Source of the DNA: a virus
Taxonomy: Duplodnaviria > Caudoviricetes
DNA: 29,576 nt
Virus record (IMG/VR): IMGVR_UViG_3300033475_000120
Location: 1 to 29,576 of that record
Direction: 5' to 3' (one strand)
The notes below the pieces were generated by a model, which made no database searches, had not been told where the DNA came from, and saw only the letters and a program-made list of their open reading frames with translations. Made by a program: the position numbers and the translations under genes. Below, piece after piece: positions 2,722-29,274 of the stretch (position 1 is its first letter; every line of letters begins with the position of its first letter).

Positions 2722-2764
2722 GCCCAGGGTTCACTGCTTACTAAAAACCCTGGGCATTTTCTTT
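2722..2764 (+). terminator. intrinsic terminator at the convergence of plus- and minus-strand units
   Basis: GCCCAGGGTT/AACCCTGGGC 10-bp stem followed by ATTTTCTTTT. Confidence 0.7.
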
Positions 2765-4497
2765 TAGTGCATCAGCTTTTCTTCAAGCATCCTGATTCTA
2801 TTAAGCAGATCAGTATTGATAGCTTGGAGTTCACCAATAAGCTGGCAATGTTTTTGAAATTCATTGAGTAGCATTGGAACCAGGTCATGGTATTTAACCG
2901 TTTCTGGCTCACCGTCTTTATATACAACAAGGTGTGGTGCAACTTCAGCCACTTCTTCAGCGATAAGACCAACAGATTTGTCTTCAGATGCATGAGCCTT
3001 GTAGTTGAATACTACTGGCCTTAAAGATCGAATAACATCGCTATATGAACCCATATCAACTATGTTGTCTTTCTTGGTACGAGAAGATGAAACGGTTCCA
3101 AGCTGACCAGCAGAGTCAATAAGAACCGCTATAGCGTTATTGTTTACCGTAGTGATACCACGAATACCATGGATGAATGTTTTATTGGTCTCACCAACAC
3201 CCGAACCAGTAGTGTTACCTATGCGTGTCACATTTGACTCGCCAGTAACACCTGTGGTAGAAGGTCCTATCAATATGTTCGATGATTCATTAGATGTATA
3301 AGCTGAACCCGCGGCAAAACCAAGAGCTGTATTGTAGGATCCAGTTACTAATCCTGTTCCACTGCCTGCTGAAGTGAAATTATCCTTTCCTACTCCTGTA
3401 TTTTGGACCCCAGAAGTCAAAAAATTCATTCCCACATCTCCAATAGAGATATTCCCCCCAACACCGTTATTTATACTCGCAAGTACACCTCCACCAATTC
3501 CTATGTTTCCTACTGTTGAAGTAGAAGAAATAGTAAAATTACCTGCCCCTTCTCCTAGGAAAATATTCGAACCATTAATAGCAGCTGATCCAGGGTAGTT
3601 ATGCAATATAATCTTGTTGGTTGATGCATTAGAGCCAATCGCAAGCTGTATTAATCCTGATGATCCAGCAACGCCAGTTGTTCCTATAATCGTGTTGTTT
3701 GATTCTGAACCCGTTAATGAAGACCCAGCAAGGTGACCAATTAAGATTGACTCTGATCCGGATACCAAACTAGTAGCTGCACCTTGTCCAATAATAGTAT
3801 TGTTACCAGCACCACCCGCTAATAAAGTAGCGCATCCTTCACCTATGATCGTATTATTACTTGATGACGTTAATGCAGGAGCGCTAAATGCCCCTAGAAC
3901 CGTGCAATTGGTAGAAGTTAAGGTTAGGTTACCCGAATTATCACCGATAATAGTGTTTAGATCGGCATCAGTAACAAGCAAATTAACATTGTTAGTGCTT
4001 CCTTCAAATTCAACTGATGAACCACATCGCAAGCTTGCAGTCTGAGCTTTTATGTTTAATACACCAGCTATTGGGGTTGCGGTACCAGAATCAGTAGGAA
4101 ATGATTGTGCGGCGACACCACCACCCACCAAAGATGCAGTTAAGGTAGATGTTCCTGGATTTCCAGTTATTGTTATTCCAACACCATCACCTACAACATT
4201 GATATTGCCCGCTGTAGGAGGGACTGCTCCTCCAGAATTGCCTGTTAATTCTAATACAGCACCCGAAGCGCCCGTTAACATAACCCAGGTAGCAACATTA
4301 CCCACTAAGGATACCAGCATCCATACTGTTTCAGTTGCAATATTAAGCCATATCGTTCCTAGATAAACGTTTTTTGAGTCATTGGGTGTTGGATCACGGG
4401 GTTTGGTTAAGAAGTCAGGAGGTTGCACAGCGTTCACGCCGGCATAGCTTAATGGCTCAAGACCATTAAGGCGTTGATTAATGTTAGGATTTGCCAT
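2764..4497 (-). CDS. tail fibre/spike with C-terminal peptidase S74 intramolecular chaperone
   Basis: Gly/Asn-rich NTxxG repeats; C-terminal SSRTKKDNI...LRPVVFNYK...GLIAEEV...VKYHDLVPMLL plus coiled coil. Confidence 0.85.
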   Translation of the reverse strand: MANPNINQRLNGLEPLSYAGVNAVQPPDFLTKPRDPTPNDSKNVYLGTIWLNIATETVWMLVSLVGNVATWVMLTGASGAVLELTGNSGGAVPPTAGNINVVGDGVGITITGNPGTSTLTASLVGGGVAAQSFPTDSGTATPIAGVLNIKAQTASLRCGSSVEFEGSTNNVNLLVTDADLNTIIGDNSGNLTLTSTNCTVLGAFSAPALTSSSNNTIIGEGCATLLAGGAGNNTIIGQGAATSLVSGSESILIGHLAGSSLTGSESNNTIIGTTGVAGSSGLIQLAIGSNASTNKIILHNYPGSAAINGSNIFLGEGAGNFTISSTSTVGNIGIGGGVLASINNGVGGNISIGDVGMNFLTSGVQNTGVGKDNFTSAGSGTGLVTGSYNTALGFAAGSAYTSNESSNILIGPSTTGVTGESNVTRIGNTTGSGVGETNKTFIHGIRGITTVNNNAIAVLIDSAGQLGTVSSSRTKKDNIVDMGSYSDVIRSLRPVVFNYKAHASEDKSVGLIAEEVAEVAPHLVVYKDGEPETVKYHDLVPMLLNEFQKHCQLIGELQAINTDLLNRIRMLEEKLMH

Positions 4498-4498
4498 G

Positions 4499-6250
4499 TT
4501 ACACTCCTTGCTTGGATTCTAATACTTCTATGCGTTTGATAGCTTTTTTAAGCTCTGAAAGCAAGAACCAAACAACCTCGTGGCTTTTAATTGCCATGTT
4601 TGCTGCATCATCTGATACCACGAGATCAGGCAGTATTTCCTTGAGGTCTTCAGCAATAACACCGTACGTAGTAATTCCTGGTTGTTTGATGTAATTAAAC
4701 TTAACGGGCTCAGCTTTTAAGATTGCGGAACTATCAAATGATTGAATGTTTTCTTTTACCAAACGGGATGAAGAAACAACACCAAGTTGCCCAGAACCAT
4801 CAACCAAAACGGGAACTGCCGCACCACCTGTTGTTACACCAGTAATACCATCAATAAAGCATGCTGTTTGAGACGTTGCATTGAGGAAATATCCAATACG
4901 AGTCACATTATTTTCGGTGGCTGTACCATAAGCACCACCAATTACGATATTTTGTGATTCACTGGTTGTATAGTTAGTACCCGATCCTGCCCCAACTCCG
5001 ATATTTCTTACGCCCGTGGTTAATTGATAAAGAGCAGATTGTCCCAATGCACAGTTCTGATCGGCGCCAGATCCCGAAGTAGTATAACTTTGCAACGAAC
5101 CCCAACCTAATGCCGTATTGAAATTCGCACTGGTCGCGGAAGCTCCCGAATTATAACCAATAAATGTATTGGCTAAAGGTGAAGTCGTTAAAGATGCTCC
5201 TGCCAGTACACCAAGAATAGTACATTGCGTGACGGAATTAGCTGCAAAACTATTATTCCCGCCCCCAATAGCAATATTGCTATTGGCATCAAATGAAGTT
5301 AATGTTTGGGTTGATCCGCTTCCTGTAAATGCCCATGTTGGTCCAACTTTAGTAGTTCCTTGTGCAGTAAAAGTAATAATGACTCCAGCTGCCGAACCAG
5401 AATCTCCATTAATTTGCAGAACGGGAGAAGAAGATGATGCTCCTAACTTACCATTAGAATCAACTGCGACAAGAGATCCTGAAACCGAATGACCAAATAT
5501 GCCATCAATGTAGCATGCTGTTTGCGTAGAAGCACCGGCATTAGTAAATCCAATGGATATAGCATTACTGGTTCCTCCATCTAAATTTGATGAACCCCTA
5601 CCAATAAATATATTGGCGTCTTGCGCACCTGTTATTCCCTGCCCGGAATTATATCCCACAAAGATATTGTTACTGGAAGTCGAGTTTAAGTTTGGTCCTG
5701 AAGAGTAGCCAATAAATGTATTATTCCCCCCTGAAACAATACTTGGACCGCTTCCAAAACCAATAAGCGTATTTTGATTTCCCGTCAGACCTGCTCCTGC
5801 TCCACTTCCTATAGCAATGGTACGAGATGAATTTCCCAAATTAAGATTACCGGCACCAGAACCAATAAGAATTACTGGCGTTGTTCCACCAGTGACATCA
5901 GGAAACGCTATACCTCTTGCTGATCCGAATGTTATAACGCCCTGATTGCCGCTCGTATTTGATGACGGGAGATTTACATTACCTGCAGAAAGAGTCACAT
6001 CTCCGGTAGTACATATTAGGGCCGGAGAACCTATAATTGAAGATAAATCTCCAAGGGTTATTGCGTTGTTGATAGCGAATGTGACAGTATTAGTTCCTGG
6101 ATTTCCCGCAGAGTTTAATCCATGGGAACCAGGTACCATGATGATACCACCCGCATCGGGGCCTACTTGTCCGCCTGTATTACCTTGTAAAAATTTTACG
6201 TTGCCCACACCGCCTCCTCCGCCAGATCCAGATCCTGATATTGATGACAT
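4499..6250 (-). CDS. second tail fibre/spike with peptidase S74 chaperone
   Basis: NTFIGY/NTALG repeats; C-terminal SSRLVKENI...PVKFNY...YGVIAEDL plus coiled coil. Confidence 0.85.
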   Translation of the reverse strand: MSSISGSGSGGGGGVGNVKFLQGNTGGQVGPDAGGIIMVPGSHGLNSAGNPGTNTVTFAINNAITLGDLSSIIGSPALICTTGDVTLSAGNVNLPSSNTSGNQGVITFGSARGIAFPDVTGGTTPVILIGSGAGNLNLGNSSRTIAIGSGAGAGLTGNQNTLIGFGSGPSIVSGGNNTFIGYSSGPNLNSTSSNNIFVGYNSGQGITGAQDANIFIGRGSSNLDGGTSNAISIGFTNAGASTQTACYIDGIFGHSVSGSLVAVDSNGKLGASSSSPVLQINGDSGSAAGVIITFTAQGTTKVGPTWAFTGSGSTQTLTSFDANSNIAIGGGNNSFAANSVTQCTILGVLAGASLTTSPLANTFIGYNSGASATSANFNTALGWGSLQSYTTSGSGADQNCALGQSALYQLTTGVRNIGVGAGSGTNYTTSESQNIVIGGAYGTATENNVTRIGYFLNATSQTACFIDGITGVTTGGAAVPVLVDGSGQLGVVSSSRLVKENIQSFDSSAILKAEPVKFNYIKQPGITTYGVIAEDLKEILPDLVVSDDAANMAIKSHEVVWFLLSELKKAIKRIEVLESKQGV

Positions 6251-17215: not shown

Positions 17216-17731
17216 TTATGCTAATGTTGCGCGTAAGTTGATTACCCACAAGTCATTAGTGATTCGTGGAACTTCAGCAAATTTATAGCCGACAGAAGCG
17301 TTAAGCGCTAATGGGCCATCATATATTGGTGGTCGATAGATAAAGCTTGCGGAATATCCATCTTGTTCAATACATGCATATGCTTCCATACCCACGCAGA
17401 AGATATTGTATACATTAGCTCCGTTGCTTGAAGCATTAGGAGTTACTGATCCAATAGAGCTGATAAGGAAACGAAGGTTACCAATAGCACCCCATTCTGA
17501 ACGCAATGCATTCATAGGAGCTGGATATTGGTTCTTTTGAATAAAACCAGCAACCGCATCCAAGTTACCCGTTAATTGGGTTGAGCATAATGCAAAGTAT
17601 GCATCACGAACTGGAGCTGTACCGAACTTATCTTCACCTTCGATGTTGTCCATGATTGTGTATGCATTGTTATTTAACAATGTACGCACAACAGCATCAA
17701 CATCTGAACGTGTGATTTCTGTTGGGTTATC
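17216..17731 (-). CDS. major capsid protein exon 3 (171 aa + stop)
   Basis: Begins GAT after terminal intron G: DNPTEITRSDVDAVVRTLL...EWGAIGNLRF...GPLALNASVGYK (N4 gp56-like MCP C-terminal motifs). Confidence 0.85.
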   Translation of the reverse strand, partial: DNPTEITRSDVDAVVRTLLNNNAYTIMDNIEGEDKFGTAPVRDAYFALCSTQLTGNLDAVAGFIQKNQYPAPMNALRSEWGAIGNLRFLISSIGSVTPNASSNGANVYNIFCVGMEAYACIEQDGYSASFIYRPPIYDGPLALNASVGYKFAEVPRITNDLWVINLRATLA

Positions 17732-18173
17732 CTTTTCTGTTACTTCAGCTTTCGCTTACTGACCTCTTCAGGCGGGGACTTTCTCTACTTATCCCTCATT
17801 GTGTTTCCACAATGTTCAGAGCACCGCATCCTTCGTGCATTTACATCCGTATCGTTGCAATTCCCACCAACCATCTTGATTTTGATGATAGGAGTGATAA
17901 CAGCGCGGAGGTTTTACAGGAAGGTCTTCTCGCTTGCTACGTTCAGGCTGTTTGAGTTTTCTGTTTTCTTCTTCAAGTTTTTTTATCTCTTCTCGATGTC
18001 TTTCTCGCGATCTTCTCTCAGAAGATTCTGCCAATTGCCTTGCGTTATTATCAAGAATCGATTTTACTATCCAAAAACCACTTACACTCATTCTTGCCCC
18101 TTGTTGCCGGTTAGCTATATGCCACTACGGTTTCCAAGTCTATCAGAGAAGATTTAAAAACGGCAATAATTCT
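17732..18173 (-). mobile_element. group I self-splicing intron 2 in MCP (442 nt)
   Basis: P1 AACGGU/GCCGUU with U.G at the splice site; P10 UUAUU/GAUAA; P3 UCUUCUC/GAGAAGA; P4 CUUG/CAAG; P9 CAUUGUG-GAAA-CACAAUG; ends in G; removal restores the frame. Confidence 0.88.
17816..18091 (-). CDS. intron-2 internal ORF (91 aa), charged/coiled-coil; not a recognisable homing endonuclease
   Basis: ATG right after AAGGGGCAAGA (SD-like); runs through the ribozyme core (QPERSKRED). Confidence 0.45.
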   Translation of the reverse strand: MSVSGFWIVKSILDNNARQLAESSERRSRERHREEIKKLEEENRKLKQPERSKREDLPVKPPRCYHSYHQNQDGWWELQRYGCKCTKDAVL

Positions 18174-18293
18174 ACCGTTCACACCGCCAACGCAGTTAAT
18201 GAAACCAGCAGTTGCTGCTAACATATCACGGGTTAGTTGGTCTTCTGTTTGACGAAGTGAAACACCCAAACGTGCCGCACATTCGTTTAATAC
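18174..18293 (-). CDS. major capsid protein exon 2 (40 aa)
   Basis: VLNECAARLGVSLRQTEDQLTRDMLAATAGFINCVGGVNG, fitting the long spine helix of an HK97-fold MCP. Confidence 0.85.
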
Positions 18294-18300
18294 CAATCTG

Positions 18301-18489
18301 TTACTTAAATGACCTAATTTCTTTTCTCATAAGCGCTTTGCAATTTTCTGGTTTACACATAAAGTGGGCTCCTGCGTTACAGTAACTTCCTCTAATATCC
18401 CAGCATTCGTACCAGGGCTTACCAAATTCTTGCTCCATCTGCTCATTAGTTATGAACTTAGGCGGGGACTTTCTCAACTTATCCCTCAT
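18301..18489 (-). CDS. intron-1 3'-domain ORF, Cys-rich (62 aa from ATG 18489)
   Basis: GGUGGA SD-like sequence in P9; MRDKLRKSPPKF...YECWDIRGSYCNAGAHFMCKPENCK. Confidence 0.35.
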   Translation of the reverse strand: MRDKLRKSPPKFITNEQMEQEFGKPWYECWDIRGSYCNAGAHFMCKPENCKALMRKEIRSFK

Positions 18490-18751
18490 GATGATTTCCA
18501 CCATGTTCAGAGCACCGCATCTCTGTACTACAATTTTTAAACGCATGTTCAAATTGTTTATCACTAATATCGATGAGTACAGAGTCTTCTCGCTTGCTAC
18601 GTTCAGGCTGATTGAAAGATTTTTTAACCGAATCTAGTTTAGAGTCAAGTTTGTAATAACAAGCTTCACAATATTCCCCAAATGCAGGATAATACATTGG
18701 ATTTTTTATTTTGCTTTGACATTTATCGCATTCGTAAAAAAATTCTTTCAT
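18479..18751 (-). CDS. intron-1 P6 ORF (90 aa), CxxC...CxxC zinc-ribbon-like
   Basis: CDKC...CEAC; ATG at the same position as the intron-2 ORF. Confidence 0.45.
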   Translation of the reverse strand: MKEFFYECDKCQSKIKNPMYYPAFGEYCEACYYKLDSKLDSVKKSFNQPERSKREDSVLIDISDKQFEHAFKNCSTEMRCSEHGGNHHEG

Positions 18752-18832
18752 TCTTGCCCCTTGTCACGATCGTCTTTACGCTACCGCTTCCAAGTCTATC
18801 AGAGAAGATTTAAAGACCCCATATTTTTGTTT

Positions 18833-19144
18833 AGGGTCTTGGTTTTGTAAGGTAACTTGCTCGTTCAATTGAACATAAGTCCCGTAAAACGAAATCTGGG
18901 CGTCAATGTCTACAGCGGTTAGATTTTGCGCTGGAGGTGTGATACCAGAGTTTCCTAGTGGAACCATTGCGGTATTGAGAGGATTATATCTACGCATACG
19001 AAGTGTATTACCACCGTTGCGAGGCATATTCTTCTTCATCGCAGGGATTTTGTGAATCATGTTAGGTACAGGCACTGAGAGCAGCTTGTAACTAAAGGAT
19101 TGCTGCACTGGCGATGGCAGAATACTTGTAGTAGTTATAGCCAT
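18833..19144 (-). CDS. major capsid protein exon 1 (104 aa), N4 gp56-like family
   Basis: AGGAG RBS; MPRNGGNTLRMRRYNPL...GITP...YG.YV motifs; downstream of scaffold. Confidence 0.88.
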
Positions 19145-22081: not shown

Positions 22082-22288
22082 TTAATCCCATTCCGGCATA
22101 AAATAGCCGCCATCTTTAGGAAATTCATGATGTTGTGCACGACGCGGAAGATTAGCCATTGCAGAATGATCTTCACGAATCATATTAAAATCACGACGTT
22201 CTTGATTCCGACGAGGATCTTGATTGTCTGATTTAATTTTACCCGCGCGCTCAAAATGCATCTTGATAACTTGTTCTTCCATGATCAC
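22082..22288 (-). CDS. small protein, paralog of 22291..22551
   Basis: RRNQERRDFNMIREDHSAMANLP motif. Confidence 0.7.
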   Translation of the reverse strand: MIMEEQVIKMHFERAGKIKSDNQDPRRNQERRDFNMIREDHSAMANLPRRAQHHEFPKDGGYFMPEWD

Positions 22289-22290
22289 CC

Positions 22291-22551
22291 TTAGTATTTG
22301 TGGGGTTTCAAGTGTTGCATTCTCTTAGAATCATCAGCTTCCATCTGACGGTTAACGCCACGAATGGTATCATCAAGATTTTCTGGCATATATGATCCGC
22401 CGTCTGGCCATGGTTTGATCATAACTTCTTGAGGCATGTTAGCAATGGCTGATGGATTTTCACGAATCATGCCAGCGTCTTGCATCTCTTGTGTTCTGCG
22501 GCCACTCATTCCTTCATAGTGGCCTTCTCTGTGGTGATGTCTTTTAGCCAT
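22291..22551 (-). CDS. small protein (86 aa)
   Basis: AAGGAG RBS; RRTQEMQDAGMIRENPSAIANMP motif. Confidence 0.8.
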   Translation of the reverse strand: MAKRHHHREGHYEGMSGRRTQEMQDAGMIRENPSAIANMPQEVMIKPWPDGGSYMPENLDDTIRGVNRQMEADDSKRMQHLKPHKY

Positions 22552-22629: not shown

Positions 22630-22824
22630 TTATAAATGCTTTAATATTTCGTTAATGCCCAACTTGGCGGTATCAGTTAATTCCGTTTGATCCAAATCAA
22701 ACGATAATACCATCTGCCACTTGTTGCCGCCTTGGTTAACAAAACTGACTTCATGCTCAACATCTTCAAGAGCATCGTAAAGTTTACTGTGCGCTAACTC
22801 GGATACTAAGTCTTTTATGTTCAT
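22630..22824 (-). CDS. hypothetical protein (64 aa)
   Basis: ATGA overlap with portal stop; AAGGA RBS. Confidence 0.65.
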   Translation of the reverse strand: MNIKDLVSELAHSKLYDALEDVEHEVSFVNQGGNKWQMVLSFDLDQTELTDTAKLGINEILKHL

Positions 22825-24911
22825 TTGATTCCTTGTGATTGTAGGCCAGGTTGCTGCGCGGCTTGAGACGCCAATGCAGTTTCCGCTCCTTTCGTTGCAT
22901 TCGTTTCTTTTTCAGTAACCGATTGACTGTCTTGCATTTTAAGCATTTGCGATAAGGCGATATATTTTTCAAGGTGAGTGATGTCAAGCTCTTCAATTTC
23001 CTTAATAGCTCTAACCTTATCAAGGAGTCCAGCATCCTCATCTCGTATAGCCTGAGCGCGACGCTCAACCGCCAATGCTTGATTTTCTTCAACACGAGAT
23101 ATCCTTTCAAGGCCAAGACCTTGATCAGCTGCTGCACGTGCGCGAGCCAACTCAGCTTGTGCGTTTTGCAGATCCATTTGCTGTTGCAATTGTTGTTGCT
23201 GTACTTGTTGCGCTTGTTGTTGTTGTGCTGCTATAGCTTCTACCAATTCTTTCTTATTCTGCATCGTAGACGCATTAAGCAATACATCATCAGGAACAGG
23301 GATACCAGCTTCTCTGAGCTGCAATAACTGTGCAAATTGCATGTTTTTCTGAGTTGCGGTGTTAAGACCTTCAACGACAACTGAGTGGTATTTACCAAAT
23401 GCTTTGTTATAGAACTGTTGGGTAGGCTCTTCACCTTCTAATATCTTCTTTACTTTACCAGGCGTATAGTTTGCTTGTATCAAGTCGATGATAATATCAC
23501 CCAATTGCTTTTGCGCATAGTCCAAGTTATCAAAAAGAATCTGAAGCGTAGTCAGACCAGCACCCTGGCGTAGCATTGATAATATGCCTGCTTTGTCATC
23601 AGTCGCACTACCAAGCAGCTCTTCATTTACGCCAGATATTTGGGATATTTCTTCACCAAGCATGCGTGATAATTCAATCATGCCTGCGGGTATTCCAGGA
23701 GCCATGATTTGCTCAACATCGGTCATTTGCGCATCATCTTTCAATGCCAATCCACGACCTTGACCAGACAAGAATACGTCTTTGGGATTGACCAAAGCGT
23801 TTTCCTTGTACTTCCATCCAGAGTTGATTTGAGACTCAAGTATATCCAACTCAATAATTTTCCTGCGATTGTATAAATACTGCGAGTCACGAAGTCCGCG
23901 CACAACCCCTTGTATGCGATAGGGGTAGTAGGGCATTTGGGGATTATAGTACCCAATAACGGGCACAAAGGGCATGCGATCAATGCCTGATGGCTGGGGA
24001 CCATCGTACATAACTTTTCCCTGCACAACGAGTGCAACTTTTGTAGTGGGTACTTCTGCCTCGATCATTGTCACTGAAGGGTATTTCTTTAAGAATAACT
24101 TCAAGCGATCTGGATCTTGCCCCTTCCATTCTTGTGTCTCACCTGTTTGCGCATCAACCAGCAGTTGTTGCATGCGATAATCTTTATAATAGAACTCATC
24201 ATAGGTAAGTAAGTTAGTGTAACTCACGTTGTAATTTTCTGGCATAAACTGGAACTTTGAATCCCGTCCGGCCTGTGACTCATTACCTTGAAGTCCCAAT
24301 ATTTCATCAGCATAATCAGGCAACAGCGATATTACTTCGCGCTTGGTTAAGAACGTGCGCTTCCATATCGAGTTACAATCTGAAAAATCCATCTTGCGGA
24401 AAAATGGGTCCACCAAAAACGAGTTGTACGAACAATTATCGACTTTAATATCACCTGAGACCGGATCTTTGCGGTAATCCATGTATACCTGCAAAAAGTT
24501 CATGCCGGTTACCAACGCACCATCAAAGGAATCAGAGAGTGTATGCAATATACCTTCAGTACGCTGCAGGTAATTAAATATTTTGGTTATTTGATCGGCC
24601 GTTTGATCATCTGCATTGGACACACCTTCGCATACAAGCGATTTGCGGTTATTGCGTTGATGACCGCCAATCATATTCTTAGTTCTGCGTATACGGTTAA
24701 AATTAAACTGTGTCCGACGATTAACCGGAAGGTTGCCCCATACATCGTTCCATAACGTTTGATCGCCTGCTTCAAATCGCGTATCTAAATCGGCTTCCGA
24801 CCAAAACGATTGATTAAGGGTAATTGCTTCAGCATAAAATGCCTCCATGCGCGATAATATGGCGCGATCTTTTTCGGTATAGTAGGCAGGTGATAGTTGC
24901 GGGAAAATCAT
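22821..24911 (-). CDS. portal protein, P22 gp1-like (696 aa from ATG 24911)
   Basis: AAGGAG RBS; GDQ, FNRIR, GVVRGLRDSQ..YN motifs; Q-rich C-terminal barrel; downstream of TerL. Confidence 0.88.
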   Translation of the reverse strand: MIFPQLSPAYYTEKDRAILSRMEAFYAEAITLNQSFWSEADLDTRFEAGDQTLWNDVWGNLPVNRRTQFNFNRIRRTKNMIGGHQRNNRKSLVCEGVSNADDQTADQITKIFNYLQRTEGILHTLSDSFDGALVTGMNFLQVYMDYRKDPVSGDIKVDNCSYNSFLVDPFFRKMDFSDCNSIWKRTFLTKREVISLLPDYADEILGLQGNESQAGRDSKFQFMPENYNVSYTNLLTYDEFYYKDYRMQQLLVDAQTGETQEWKGQDPDRLKLFLKKYPSVTMIEAEVPTTKVALVVQGKVMYDGPQPSGIDRMPFVPVIGYYNPQMPYYPYRIQGVVRGLRDSQYLYNRRKIIELDILESQINSGWKYKENALVNPKDVFLSGQGRGLALKDDAQMTDVEQIMAPGIPAGMIELSRMLGEEISQISGVNEELLGSATDDKAGILSMLRQGAGLTTLQILFDNLDYAQKQLGDIIIDLIQANYTPGKVKKILEGEEPTQQFYNKAFGKYHSVVVEGLNTATQKNMQFAQLLQLREAGIPVPDDVLLNASTMQNKKELVEAIAAQQQQAQQVQQQQLQQQMDLQNAQAELARARAAADQGLGLERISRVEENQALAVERRAQAIRDEDAGLLDKVRAIKEIEELDITHLEKYIALSQMLKMQDSQSVTEKETNATKGAETALASQAAQQPGLQSQGIK

Positions 24912-25035
24912 GCGTACAGTCTCCTTAATTAAGTTATGTGCTACAAGGAATAAGGGGGGGTAAGACATGATATTTTAAACCTTGCAGCACGTGGCACTTA
25001 TTCTATGATAACAACCTACAATATCAAGAAGAAAT

Positions 25036-25087: not shown

Positions 25088-25459
25088 TTATTGTTCTAAT
25101 GGTTCTGGGTCAGGAAGCTTGTAACGATTTACAAAATTAGTTACCCAATCAAACACATGGCGCTCATCATGATTGATTTTACTCATTAAGGTAAGTAATT
25201 CCTGAAACTGGGTAGCGATTCCATCAAACAACATGATGCGATGTTCCACAGGAATCTCCGCGTCATCGTTAATTTCATCCACAGCACACCGTAGTAACTC
25301 AACTTGATTTAATGCCCATGATGCTACATGATCTTCAAGCTCAGCGTAATTTAATCGTTTTTTCTCACGCGTCATCGTATTACCCTCGCTTAAAAAAAAA
25401 ATGAACAACGACATAAACGCCAATCCCACAAACCAACCAATTTTACTTACGTGCTTCAT
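25088..25459 (-). CDS. hypothetical protein (123 aa; possible internal start at MTREKK)
   Basis: N-terminal TM then helical domain; GAGGG precedes the internal ATG. Confidence 0.6.
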   Translation of the reverse strand: MKHVSKIGWFVGLAFMSLFIFFLSEGNTMTREKKRLNYAELEDHVASWALNQVELLRCAVDEINDDAEIPVEHRIMLFDGIATQFQELLTLMSKINHDERHVFDWVTNFVNRYKLPDPEPLEQ

Positions 25460-25658: not shown

Positions 25659-25896
25659 AAAAATAGATATCCGGATACTTTTTCATATCGCACAATTTAC
25701 ACCAGCCATGAACGCACCAGCACTGCTTATCTGGTTTTTTAAGCAAAGCATCTTTGCATTCATAATCTAACTCGCATTGATCGGTATGTGAGCGGTCTTT
25801 ATTGCTTTGGGATTGAATTTCTTTGCATGTCTGCATTCTTACACCTTTCAAACCACGACTTTGCTCTATCGTGATGACTAGCAAGCACTTGGTCAA
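25645..25896 (-). CDS. small Cys-rich hypothetical protein (start probably MQTCK)
   Basis: AAGGTG RBS before MQTCKE; CWCVHGWCKLC. Confidence 0.5.
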   Translation of the reverse strand: MTKCLLVITIEQSRGLKGVRMQTCKEIQSQSNKDRSHTDQCELDYECKDALLKKPDKQCWCVHGWCKLCDMKKYPDIYFYDKI

Positions 25897-26620
25897 AGTT
25901 TTGATTGTTTATTGCCGTACCAAAACAATATCTATCTTTGCTTTCTTTGTAAATCAAACTCACATCATAAACTTCATATCCATCAGCTCTTTCGTGGTAT
26001 ATAAAACCTACATCTTCGCCAAAATATCCCGTTGACCAGTTGATCAATCGATCAACTATTTTTTTCTGGCTATATTGTTTGTCCCGGCAAGCTTTACATA
26101 TGGGTAAGTTTTCAGGAACACACATATCGTTGTGTAAATATAACTGATGATCTATTTCATCTTGTGGAGGCATATCCTTTGCCAGCTTAAAATCAGATGG
26201 AGGTGGAGTTATTCCACTTGCTCCCAAAGGAACTATTGCAGGGGCAATACCAAGGGATGGTCTTTCCTCAAACATGATTAGACGATTGTTTTTACAGCCT
26301 AGGCACCAACAGGATTCAAGATTCATAGAACCCTCGGGCTTTGACTGTTCAATCCAATCAAAGAGGTATTTAAAATCAGGAAAGTTTTCTCGAGCGATTG
26401 GTAATACCGGATATAATGTATAAAGCTCTTCGTGCACTAGATCTATTGACTCACAAGGAAAGTTTTCAAACAATCCAGGACTTTTCATTTCAGGACTTTC
26501 CAAATAATTATCAATAAATGTCGCCCATTTTGCTTGATGGTTAAAATATAATCTATTCAACTTCTTCAAGTTGTAATGAATCGTGTGCAATAATAAATTA
26601 TGACTTTTTTCGTAGCTCAT
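25799..26620 (-). CDS. mosaic hypothetical protein (273 aa) containing a capsid-like peptide
   Basis: Starts directly after the TerL stop with GAGG RBS; contains AIVPLGASGITPP. Confidence 0.7.
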   Translation of the reverse strand: MSYEKSHNLLLHTIHYNLKKLNRLYFNHQAKWATFIDNYLESPEMKSPGLFENFPCESIDLVHEELYTLYPVLPIARENFPDFKYLFDWIEQSKPEGSMNLESCWCLGCKNNRLIMFEERPSLGIAPAIVPLGASGITPPPSDFKLAKDMPPQDEIDHQLYLHNDMCVPENLPICKACRDKQYSQKKIVDRLINWSTGYFGEDVGFIYHERADGYEVYDVSLIYKESKDRYCFGTAINNQNFDQVLASHHDRAKSWFERCKNADMQRNSIPKQ

Positions 26621-27976
26621 TTATATATCCTCTCTAAAGAATCCACTGGTTTGTCTTGTTCCATACATTGCTTCTCTGTATCTGTTTTCAAGTTGTTCTG
26701 GTGTTGTGCCTTCAAATGAAGCTTTCTTAAGGGCAACACACATATATCTAAATGCATCTGCACCATGGCTTGATTCGTCGTGCAGTGGTATACCTTTATA
26801 CATCTTGCGAGTTGAGTCCCATTCCTGACGATAATTTGCTAGCGCCTTTATCAGATCTTTACATTTGGTTTGGTCGATACGTATGATGGGCAGCTTCTGT
26901 TTAACAAATTCAATTCCATCAAGAAGATCGTGTTTATATATCTCACTAAAGTTGAGCCCCAATTGCTTATACATCTCACGGCGTGTTATGCCAGAGCCTT
27001 GTTCGCGCACCATAATATCGTGAGGAGGGAAATGCTTACCATACGTATACGGCTTGGCCATTACGTAATTGACAAAGTGATCAATGGATCTGTTGGATGC
27101 CTGATAGTAATCAATCACATGTACTACCGCGCCAATACACTGAAACATGACGATGCAGGTTGGATCGTTGATCCCCAGATCCCATGCAGTATGAACTTTA
27201 AATCCAGGTTCCCACGGAACTTCGGCAATCTTACCCTCAATACGCATCTTATCCAAAATGTTTGCATAAAAGTAGCCATCTTGGCCTTCATCAAAGGAAC
27301 AGTAATACTCTTGACGAACCATGCCTTCTGATAATTCACCCAGCTCAACTTCTTTGCGAATATCCTCAATGGATATGTGTTGAGTATCTTCCACAGTTAA
27401 TCGGTAGCAAAACCAATCCTTTGAGTGTTGAGCAATCTGATACAGATCCCATAAATGATTTTTGCCACGAGGCGTGGATAGAAACAACGCTACTCCGTTA
27501 TTAGCGGTAAGAATTGGTCGAGCAAATTGATATGCGCGTGGATCTTGTAAAGAAAACTCTGAAAACACCATAAATTTAGCGTTGGTACCAACTAACGCCG
27601 TGTCGTAGTCATTCGATCCAAGGACTTGTATCACGCTGCCATTGGCAAATTTAAGGCGCATAAGCTGTTCATTGCGGTCAGCTATTTCCTTGGGGCAATA
27701 ATGATCTAATATGCGATATCCTTCATTAGTAATCGAATCCCACAAAATACGACGTCCTTGGGAGAATGTGGGGAATATATAGAAGATTGTTTGCACTTCT
27801 TTCAATGCTGCACGAACGCAGAGGTTGAATGCCACAATATCTTTACCCGCACGGCGTGGCAATATAGCCAGTACGCGCTTATAGCCCTTATTTTCTATCG
27901 CATCACAAATTGGAAGTTGATAGGGTCTGGGCTGAAATCGGTCAAGCTTTATACGTGTTTCTATGTTTAGATTCAT
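26621..27976 (-). CDS. terL: terminase large subunit
   Basis: PRPYQ Q-motif, Walker A PRRAGKD, Walker B MVFSE, STP coupling motif, RNase H-like WDLG and HGADAFRY. Confidence 0.93.
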   Translation of the reverse strand: MNLNIETRIKLDRFQPRPYQLPICDAIENKGYKRVLAILPRRAGKDIVAFNLCVRAALKEVQTIFYIFPTFSQGRRILWDSITNEGYRILDHYCPKEIADRNEQLMRLKFANGSVIQVLGSNDYDTALVGTNAKFMVFSEFSLQDPRAYQFARPILTANNGVALFLSTPRGKNHLWDLYQIAQHSKDWFCYRLTVEDTQHISIEDIRKEVELGELSEGMVRQEYYCSFDEGQDGYFYANILDKMRIEGKIAEVPWEPGFKVHTAWDLGINDPTCIVMFQCIGAVVHVIDYYQASNRSIDHFVNYVMAKPYTYGKHFPPHDIMVREQGSGITRREMYKQLGLNFSEIYKHDLLDGIEFVKQKLPIIRIDQTKCKDLIKALANYRQEWDSTRKMYKGIPLHDESSHGADAFRYMCVALKKASFEGTTPEQLENRYREAMYGTRQTSGFFREDI

Positions 27977-28134: not shown

Positions 28135-28391
28135 TTCTTTCCTTTGCACTTTTGATCACAGTCAACACCATGTTTAGTTTCAATATTATGTTTAACTCTT
28201 TCGTTCCAGGGTATATAGCCCTCACCATGAGGATTGTGATAACAATGTATGGCATCTCCACAGCATTTCTCTAAGGTAGGCATGGGACACATTCTATCTG
28301 AATTGCGGGCAACCAGCTCAGCTTCATTGAGTGAGCTTTTGCGCTCCATAACAGGAAAACGACAACATTGTTCTAACCGTGGGTCTATCAT
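28131..28391 (-). CDS. Cys-rich hypothetical protein (86 aa)
   Basis: ATGA coupling to upstream DUF551 gene. Confidence 0.6.
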   Translation of the reverse strand: MIDPRLEQCCRFPVMERKSSLNEAELVARNSDRMCPMPTLEKCCGDAIHCYHNPHGEGYIPWNERVKHNIETKHGVDCDQKCKGKK

Positions 28392-28576
28392 GGTTTTGGT
28401 ATATCCTTAAAATGCATCCAATGAGTTATTCTATAGCCCGGCTCTTGGTTATCAAACATATAGGCAGTCCAATGTTTATATTCGGGATAATATTTAGATG
28501 TCCAACATTGAACACCATCGGTTACCAGTACATATTCTTTGTCAGGCATCCTGTCTTTTACATTTATCCAGTTCAT
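28388..28576 (-). CDS. DUF551-like protein (62 aa)
   Basis: MNWINVKDRMP...VLV...ITHWM. Confidence 0.8.
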   Translation of the reverse strand: MNWINVKDRMPDKEYVLVTDGVQCWTSKYYPEYKHWTAYMFDNQEPGYRITHWMHFKDIPKP

Positions 28577-28869
28577 TTAGTCTCCGGATTCAACGGGAAT
28601 TCCATCCAATGGGTTATTTCATATTCTTCTTCTGAACATGGAAAATCCCATCTATCGACTGCGCACCAATCCCAAGAATGATCACCTTTTGCTTGATACC
28701 AATCAACCAGTATCTTATCGGCTGGAATTCTCAACATTACACTATATTTAGGGCCAGCATAATTCAGTTTATGGGGATGCGATCCTTTTAAGCAATCTTC
28801 ACAAAAACGAGCAGTCAAATATTCTTGTCCTGCTTTAGGCATCCTGTCTTTCACGCTTATCCAATTCAA
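28573..28869 (-). CDS. DUF551-like protein (98 aa)
   Basis: MNWISVKDRMP...ITHWMEFP; TTG start with AAAGGA RBS. Confidence 0.8.
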   Translation of the reverse strand: MNWISVKDRMPKAGQEYLTARFCEDCLKGSHPHKLNYAGPKYSVMLRIPADKILVDWYQAKGDHSWDWCAVDRWDFPCSEEEYEITHWMEFPLNPETK

Positions 28870-29142
28870 GTTGTTCCTTTCGTATTCGGTATTTCAGGTA
28901 AGGGCATCCAGTGAGTCACTATATGTTCTGAAATGGGAGTTGATTTATCCCAAGGAGTAAAATAATTGGAACATATACGCCATTTTCCATCTTGATATCT
29001 GCCAAAAGCTGTACCTTCAAGCAAATAAGGCTTAACATGAATATTAATAAGAACCCAAGGAGGGACGGCATACCTATCTATTGATACATATTCAGGAAGT
29101 CTCTCTTTCACGCTTATCCAATTCAAGTTGTTCCTTTCGTAT
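28847..29142. repeat. 39-bp perfect direct repeat (28847-28885 and 29104-29142)
   Basis: TCTTTCACGCTTATCCAATTCAAGTTGTTCCTTTCGTAT occurs twice, 257 bp apart. Confidence 0.9.
28866..29126 (-). CDS. DUF551-like protein (86 aa from TTG 29126)
   Basis: MNWISVKERLP...VTHWMPLPEIP; same RBS/TTG as the neighbouring gene. Confidence 0.8.
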   Translation of the reverse strand: MNWISVKERLPEYVSIDRYAVPPWVLINIHVKPYLLEGTAFGRYQDGKWRICSNYFTPWDKSTPISEHIVTHWMPLPEIPNTKGTT

Positions 29143-29274
29143 AATGCGATATTTGGCCATGCATTCATCAGAGCACCATTGTATCTGTGATTGGCGTGTT
29201 GTTGGGTACTTTTTATAGCATACATAGCAAAGCTTTTTCGTTGGCTTATCATTTCGGGGTGACAATACTTGCAT
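29092..29274 (-). CDS. small zinc-finger-like protein (60 aa)
   Basis: GGAG RBS; CYVC...WCSDEC. Confidence 0.6.
   Translation of the reverse strand: MQVLSPRNDKPTKKLCYVCYKKYPTTRQSQIQWCSDECMAKYRIIRKEQLELDKRERETS

Follow-up and report, generated by a model that had tools for sequence, protein, structure and literature searches.

Why should an accessory gene of a tailed phage, set between the terminase and portal genes, carry a short peptide that reads like a piece of the phage's own major capsid protein (MCP)? The question arises from a 29.6-kb phage record, here called the window (the whole stretch of DNA analysed, 29,576 nucleotides), whose minus strand encodes a terminase, a P22-like portal, an MCP of the N4-gp56 family and tail genes (Table 1). 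An earlier note on this DNA had drawn attention to thirteen residues of a 273-aa ORF, AIVPLGASGITPP (26201-26239, minus strand), that recur in the MCP as AMVPLGNSGITPP (18932-18970, minus strand), and had taken them for a synonymously recoded capsid peptide that could act as a mimic or decoy. The likeness itself is just as described there: 11 of 13 residues are identical, the DNA agrees at 25 of 39 bases, and 8 of the 11 identical residues use different codons, with serine encoded by AGT in the ORF and by TCT in the MCP. Both peptides lie inside the reading frames named, the one at 18932-18970 within a protein matched to PHROG 1357 (major capsid protein); the N4-gp56 family was matched for a relative 98% alike.

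Table 1. Features of the window discussed in the text (all coordinates are those of the whole stretch)
Feature	Coordinates	Strand	Remarks
Terminase large subunit	26621..27976	-	Upstream neighbour of the 273-aa ORF; PHROG match
273-aa accessory ORF	25799..26620	-	Between terminase large subunit and portal
ORF residues 1-110, helical domain with CWCLGCK at its end	26291..26620	-	Weak likeness to stand-alone 102-124-aa proteins
ORF residues 104-124 (CWCLGCK.NR.I.FEERP.LG)	26249..26311	-	Most conserved stretch of the family, non-capsid-like; 86% mean pairwise identity
ORF residues 125-141, capsid-derived peptide	26198..26248	-	Includes 26201-26239; 13/17 match to capsid 56-72
ORF residues 162-178, second capsid-like block (H-x3-C...CxxC)	26087..26137	-	Capsid 93-109; weaker, moderate support
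ORF residues 185-273, alpha/beta C-terminal domain	25802..26068	-	Confidently modelled; in 3/6 members; no fold match
P22-like portal protein	22821..24968	-	Downstream landmark; Pfam/PHROG match
MCP exon 1, codons 1-104	18833..19144	-	Source peptide 56-72 at 18929-18979
Putative group I-like intron 1, 539 nt	18294..18832	-	P1 hairpin, U-G at 5' junction, terminal G
MCP exon 2, codons 105-144	18174..18293	-	Capsid profile match
Putative group I-like intron 2, 442 nt	17732..18173	-	Three blocks 80-97% identical to intron 1
MCP exon 3	17216..17731	-	Exons sum to 315 codons + stop, the length in intact relatives

The match proved to be longer than first noted, with 13 of 17 residues shared between ORF 125-141 and capsid 56-72 when every residue found in 10% or more of 41 MCPs is allowed. 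The profile of these 41 capsids was compared with 299 reading frames of the window, and the ORF was the best non-capsid match (E 0.0065; next 1.5), while in profile-profile comparison the block scored 42.2, a value that none of 500 column shuffles equalled (maximum 34.4). Eight of 2145 pairs of minus-strand frames had at least 9 of 13 residues in common, one of them being the ORF with the MCP and the remaining seven paralogues, repeats or tail-fibre-like pairs. Additionally, three members of the ORF's family, themselves related, each gave a match of their own to the capsid profile (E 6e-6, 2e-5 and 9e-4 per sequence). The local capsid homology of the ORF, the mark expected of a captured fragment, exceeds chance. 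At database scale (23,255 frames) the ORF peptide alone was insignificant (iE 0.44), and no frame other than the 273-aa ORF gave a peptide match at iE <1. The search for the motif in further non-MCP ORFs, which had been proposed as a check, came back empty: of about 370 viral-contig matches, 120 were examined, and these comprised 114 in a capsid context and six capsid exons preceded by an insertion.

The codon differences exist but are nothing unusual. Any two of 154 distinct MCP motif sequences use, on average, different codons for 62% of the residues that they share, 31% of the 11,781 pairs have at least 8 of 11 such codons different, and AGY serine occurs in 29 of the 154; deliberate recoding was rejected on these grounds, and the synonymous recoding that the earlier note had treated as a signal lost its weight. 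The ORF agrees with the 154 capsid motifs at 21-32 of 39 bases, and the 25 bases shared with the window's own MCP equal the median; recent self-duplication was rejected on these figures, and such a codon pattern would be expected from old divergence. The best DNA match to the ORF peptide came from the capsid gene of another locus (L062; 32/39 and 36/48 bases), which has both the AGT serine and the third proline of the ORF. Both are missing from the window's own MCP, which suggests that the donor was a related phage, presumably a relative with an AGY serine and TPPP. In-frame capture from a related phage's capsid gene, the third option of the earlier note, is supported. The same note had held that absence of the motif from homologues, together with a close DNA match to another phage's MCP, would speak for neutral capture, and here the result was mixed: the motif is present in homologues of the ORF (10/13 residues in two, 5-7/13 in three), and another phage's capsid gene does match better than the own one, but not closely.

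In the alignment, the ORF peptide falls on the (T)PL-TEGV-(T)P stretch of N4-gp56 family capsids, between two strands after the N-arm, and on residues 101-113 of the solved B2 capsid, before the strand leading to the spine helix. Solved structures of the family were those of N4 gp56 (9e99), B2 (9d82) and DEV gp77 (9bgn), with Pfam PF25209 according to Atlas. The available parts of the structural reports describe, for N4 and DEV, an N-arm spanning residues 1-46 and a shell of the HK97 type (PMC11768535; PMC11445570), and for N4 an E-loop that touches the adjacent P-domain (PMC11768535). We infer that capsid residues 56-72 are the distal tip of the E-loop. This location, suspected from the beginning, is supported by homology and rests on the alignment because the AlphaFold model of the capsid (pLDDT 36) was unusable. 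A complex predicted for the capsid protein with ORF residues 100-200 scored 0.00 and was counted neither for nor against binding.

The remainder of the ORF suggests that it is likely a chimeric gene. Its N-terminal part weakly resembles a stand-alone family of 24 clusters (P0008-P0031), helical proteins of 102-124 aa that end 1-29 residues past a CxCxGC motif (exactly 8 in 15 of 24) and for which Pfam and PHROG gave no convincing match. In a non-circular comparison, residues 1-110 aligned with this family at hhalign E 3.9e-4 (probability 35%), and pairwise HMMER searches of the N-terminal part gave E 2.4e-5 to 0.015 per sequence and 0.14 among the window's frames. To these clusters belong the small ORFs like residues 1-110 that lie just upstream of the portal in L073 (113 aa; L073:1392-1730, between terminase and portal), L021 (103 aa; L021:244-552) and L055 (partial). 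A fusion point near residue 110 would fit this arrangement, and the CxCxxC and H-x3-C...CxxC groups on its two sides are predicted to bind metal.

Beyond this point, residues 111-178 lie on a single ungapped diagonal with MCP 42-109, whose successive segments match at 2/14 (residues 111-124), 13/17, 0/20 and 3/17 positions. In the last segment, relatives read LHDEVCSMNGNPCCNPC where the capsid reads LNEQVTLQNQDPVLNEC, with only 3 of 17 residues identical in the window protein. The score of this second block (20.3) exceeded that of each of the 269 other diagonals (shuffle p 2e-4, for a segment picked after the hhalign result had been viewed); unanchored, it was insignificant (20.3 vs a null of 16.3 +/- 2.7). 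One member of the family, P0004, aligned to MCP 56-127 over 77 columns, and there the anchored extension gave p 0.003 against shuffles and 0.010 against real decoys; it failed in P0001, P0002 and P0005 and was marginal in P0003, that is, in 4 of the 5 members with the downstream part. In 3/3 genes, codon positions 1 and 2 of the second block fell in the top 1-3% of in-frame stretches. Taken together, these data suggest that the captured piece was probably long, reaching at least capsid residue 109. A shorter capture, in which ~17-20 capsid codons were inserted in a loop of an existing gene and the second block is a coincidence, seems rather unlikely. It would account well for the poor flanks (2/14 and 0/20), for a nucleotide profile that matches only the peptide region and for the micro-exon NPLNTAMVPLG...LTAVD, bounded by insertions, in two related capsid genes (L115, L116), but it leaves unexplained the second block on the same diagonal, the P0004 alignment and the codon-position signal. 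Such a short capture is a variant of the reading that we prefer below and counts within it only where the peptide serves no function tied to the capsid.

Larger capsid relationships were tried and rejected. A full-length MCP paralogue, of the Ccm or T4 gp24 type, failed the similarity test, with hhalign covering 56 columns (probability 56%) and HMMER 17-22 residues. A degenerate paralogue spanning the whole length, with further blocks at ORF 60-81 and 234-246, was rejected because the upstream extension score was 0 in 6/6 members and, among 288 diagonals, the third block was outscored. In relation to N4-gp56 MCPs, the ORF carries 17 clear residues and no more than 55-70 in all. An HK97 fold was not seen, in that no capsid stood among the top rows of a fold comparison made with a low-confidence ORF model (pLDDT 55; residues 95-185 below 50). 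With the same model, Foldseek gave no match below E 0.001, and the best VIA fold comparison (Z 5.9) was among hits that were mostly generic helices.

The ORF belongs to a rare family of six protein clusters (159-312 aa), three of them with DNA. The viral and metagenome scans gave no new lineage, and pattern scans returned only the three known contigs (3/49 in later scans); more distant relatives, including longer or shorter fused forms, may exist. The 273-aa ORF had no Pfam or PHROG match, weak matches being obtained for two relatives only, and its best Atlas match (0.81) serves as a lead only. In a tree, P0006 branched outside the other members at weak support (86/78), and the order among those was not resolved. 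In 3/3 lineages with DNA, the gene sits between terminase and portal, in a slot that almost every relative fills with different genes, and it was present in 0 of 23 other MCP-selected loci showing both the terminase end and the portal. The ATG of the ORF adjoins the terminase stop (TAAATG) behind a ribosome-site-like GAGG motif, so it is likely to be co-expressed with the head (terminase-portal) genes. Furthermore, dN/dS values of 0.13, 0.37 and 0.15 over residues 1-181 (three pairs) support purifying selection on the gene.

Other parts of the window and of its relatives deserve mention. A 123-aa ORF before the portal (25088-25459, minus strand), kept in the closest relatives, gave a weak match to the profile of the stand-alone CxCxGC family (L217, E 0.012) and is perhaps a distant paralogue of it. 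In relatives L001 (11855-12328), L003 (11533-12330) and L013 (1887-2405), genes absent from the window lie directly before the portal, and from their sequence motifs we take them to be HNH-like endonucleases. On the minus strand of the window there are also two small adjacent paralogues with a common MIRE...A.AN.P motif (22082-22551), kept after the portal in relatives; three tandem DUF551 genes (28388-29252), two of which have a 12/13-residue stretch in common at the junction; and two Gly/Ser-rich tail-fibre-like proteins (2764-6250), both of which end in a Peptidase_S74 chaperone domain. The MCP is highly conserved, with 373 viral-contig stretches encoding exon 1 relatives (86-98% identity for the best 80); L004 and L230, being copies of the genome in the window, were left out as independent loci. 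Relatives are binned in genomes of many phyla, 5 of 20 bins being Chlamydiae-related or Babeliales. The placement of L211-L230 is probably for the most part mis-binning, with Chlamydiae-related bins recurring, and searches of Chlamydiae-related and Babeliales bins gave no match (0/5 each). A search for reads listed no RNA data set, and one DNA run covered 151 bases of the 3' end only.

The capsid gene is itself interrupted. Removing both insertions joins exons of 312, 120 and 516 nt in frame into a 315-aa protein, and each insertion has a P1 hairpin, an exon-end U paired with G and a terminal G, as group I introns do, so that the two related insertions are putative group I-like introns; Rfam found neither at E 0.1. 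Among 102 related loci (best matches, not a random sample, the window's copy included) the capsid gene was split in 38, at more than 10 positions. Insertions were seen at codons of about 30, 48-54, 79, 88, 104, 117, 124, 144, 181, 260 and 275, with up to four per gene (L002-L230) and lengths of 200-1230 nt, many having a KSSLIDLE-like reading in common. In L115 and L116 (about 400-440), a ~26-codon micro-exon with insertions on both sides covers exactly the peptide region. Our literature search, limited to the accessible parts of papers, found none on a capsid-gene insertion hot spot, and this hot spot merits an RNA-family study of its own.

The peptide has not fared equally in all members of the ORF family. 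Identities to the MCP 13-mer across the six are 11, 10, 10, 7, 6 and 5 of 13 (gapped alignment), and family identity is 52% over residues 128-141 and 43% over 135-141, where indels occur, vs 55% for the N-domain and 86% for residues 104-124. Members keep different capsid residues (AIVPLGASGITPPP in the window, AMVPIGNTGMTPPPV in P0006, AMVPLGN in P0004), and A[IM]VP[LI] persists in 5/6. Both the window protein and P0006 agree with capsid 56-72 at 13/17 positions, but with one another at 9/14 over 128-141, as would be expected if the capsid sequence were the ancestor. In these two most distant members, whose N-domains share 42/97 residues, retention of the peptide was slightly above the N-domain rate (p 0.09, 0.24). 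If the captured piece was long, the difference between the tip (13/17) and its flanks (2/14 and 0/20) would point to selection on the tip. On the other side, the capsid peptide of the P0002 phages is identical to that of the window, while the copy in their ORF keeps 7/13, so that the peptide does not track the phage's own capsid in the one decayed lineage with a readable capsid (in a family of n=6). A single decay in a four-member subclade is possible.

That the ORF peptide originated by capture is, taken by itself, highly probable. As to its present state, on balance we favour an old in-frame capture that left the peptide as a linker loop of an accessory protein that likely binds metal. Part of the capsid gene of a related phage would have been fused, in frame, to the end of a small helical CxCxxC gene, with the frequent insertions in the capsid gene as a plausible source of the breaks. 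The capture would have extended the cysteine-bearing gene, and its product, having gained further cysteines, would have been kept as an accessory protein. The capsid peptide would now be a variable linker loop whose likeness stems from ancestry and not from ongoing mimicry. The erosion of the peptide in half of the relatives makes a gene-fusion relic more likely than a working capsid decoy. Mosaic phage genes arise by illegitimate recombination ('morons'), and the ORF resembles them in being a patchy accessory gene in a hypervariable slot, assembled from parts; it differs from them in that its donor is an essential capsid gene and in that one loop has kept far more of its sequence than the flanks have.

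Less probable is that the protein works as a capsid mimic, with the E-loop tip grafted on a small cysteine-rich carrier that is made with the head genes and binds capsid subunits or a host capsid sensor, each lineage retuning the loop as its targets change. Binding to the capsid, which we regard as unlikely, would have the tip dock at the E-loop site of a neighbouring subunit, either to tune the phage's own head assembly or to hinder a co-infecting relative, whose capsid is almost the same at this place. The tip is kept where the flanks have diverged, the gene lies directly against the terminase gene within the head operon, the 114 capsid-context matches show almost no variation in the capsid peptide, and the N4 E-loop touches the adjacent P-domain (PMC11768535, available part). 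In this regard, satellites use capsid homologues in a like manner: Ccm of SaPIbov5, in the available part of its description, is a capsid homologue that redirects helper assembly (PMC5052747), and it likewise represents capsid-derived sequence outside the capsid gene. However, Ccm is encoded by a satellite and retains the whole HK97 fold, whereas the capsid-derived part here is a fragment within an accessory gene of the phage itself, and the ORF showed no such fold in its low-confidence model. Moreover, 3/6 members keep only 5-7/13 residues of the peptide, with the capsid unchanged in the one such lineage that is readable.

More doubtful still is an immune decoy, a peptide that occupies a host capsid sensor without activating it. 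Sensing of capsids by hosts has several precedents in the portions of the literature available: the Gol peptide of T4 gp23, sensed by Lit, and the capsid protein sensed by CapRel SJ46 (PMC9712102), Avs7 and Dsr1 (bioRxiv 10.64898/2026.01.04.697583) and Thoeris (PMC12578639). A patchy accessory gene with a fast-changing loop would also suit this role, and DSAD1 of SPbeta phages, an anti-DSR2 protein that competes with the tail tube protein for DSR2 (PMC11087589), offers a model for an accessory protein replacing a structural trigger. Nevertheless, the competition by DSAD1 was shown by structure, the accessible part of that report mentioning no sequence copy of the tube protein; for the ORF, such competition is hypothetical. 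Similarly, the Gol and CapRel triggers lie inside the capsid protein itself and belong to other phage groups, and the available texts know no sensor for the N4-gp56 family. Avs7 binds 3,700 square angstroms of folded capsid, mainly the A-domain, with E-loop surface contacts (bioRxiv 10.64898/2026.01.04.697583, available part); sensors of the Avs type read whole folds over large surfaces, for which a 17-residue loop would be a poor stand-in. Furthermore, a peptide that copies its trigger faithfully might activate the sensor and not block it. Lastly, a likeness due to chance or convergence, without shared descent, is very improbable, for the peptide may be short, Pro/Gly-rich and insignificant at database scale, but none of the 500 shuffles reached its score and three related members match the capsid profile on their own.

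In the literature searched, including one review (PMC12409349), the accessible text reported no accessory phage proteins with copied capsid peptides, most subscription papers lying outside the scope of the search. If the 273-aa ORF is a relic only, as we favour, it would represent a clean and traceable case of a new phage gene made from a piece of an essential capsid gene and a small accessory gene, useful for studies of gene birth, but modest. If, instead, the mimic were true, it would be one instance of a class of peptide-level self-mimics for which the literature searched gave no description; the peptide would mark a surface recognised by a host sensor or by the assembling shell and would be a directly testable inhibitor, and a family with both intact and decayed peptides would provide the natural controls.
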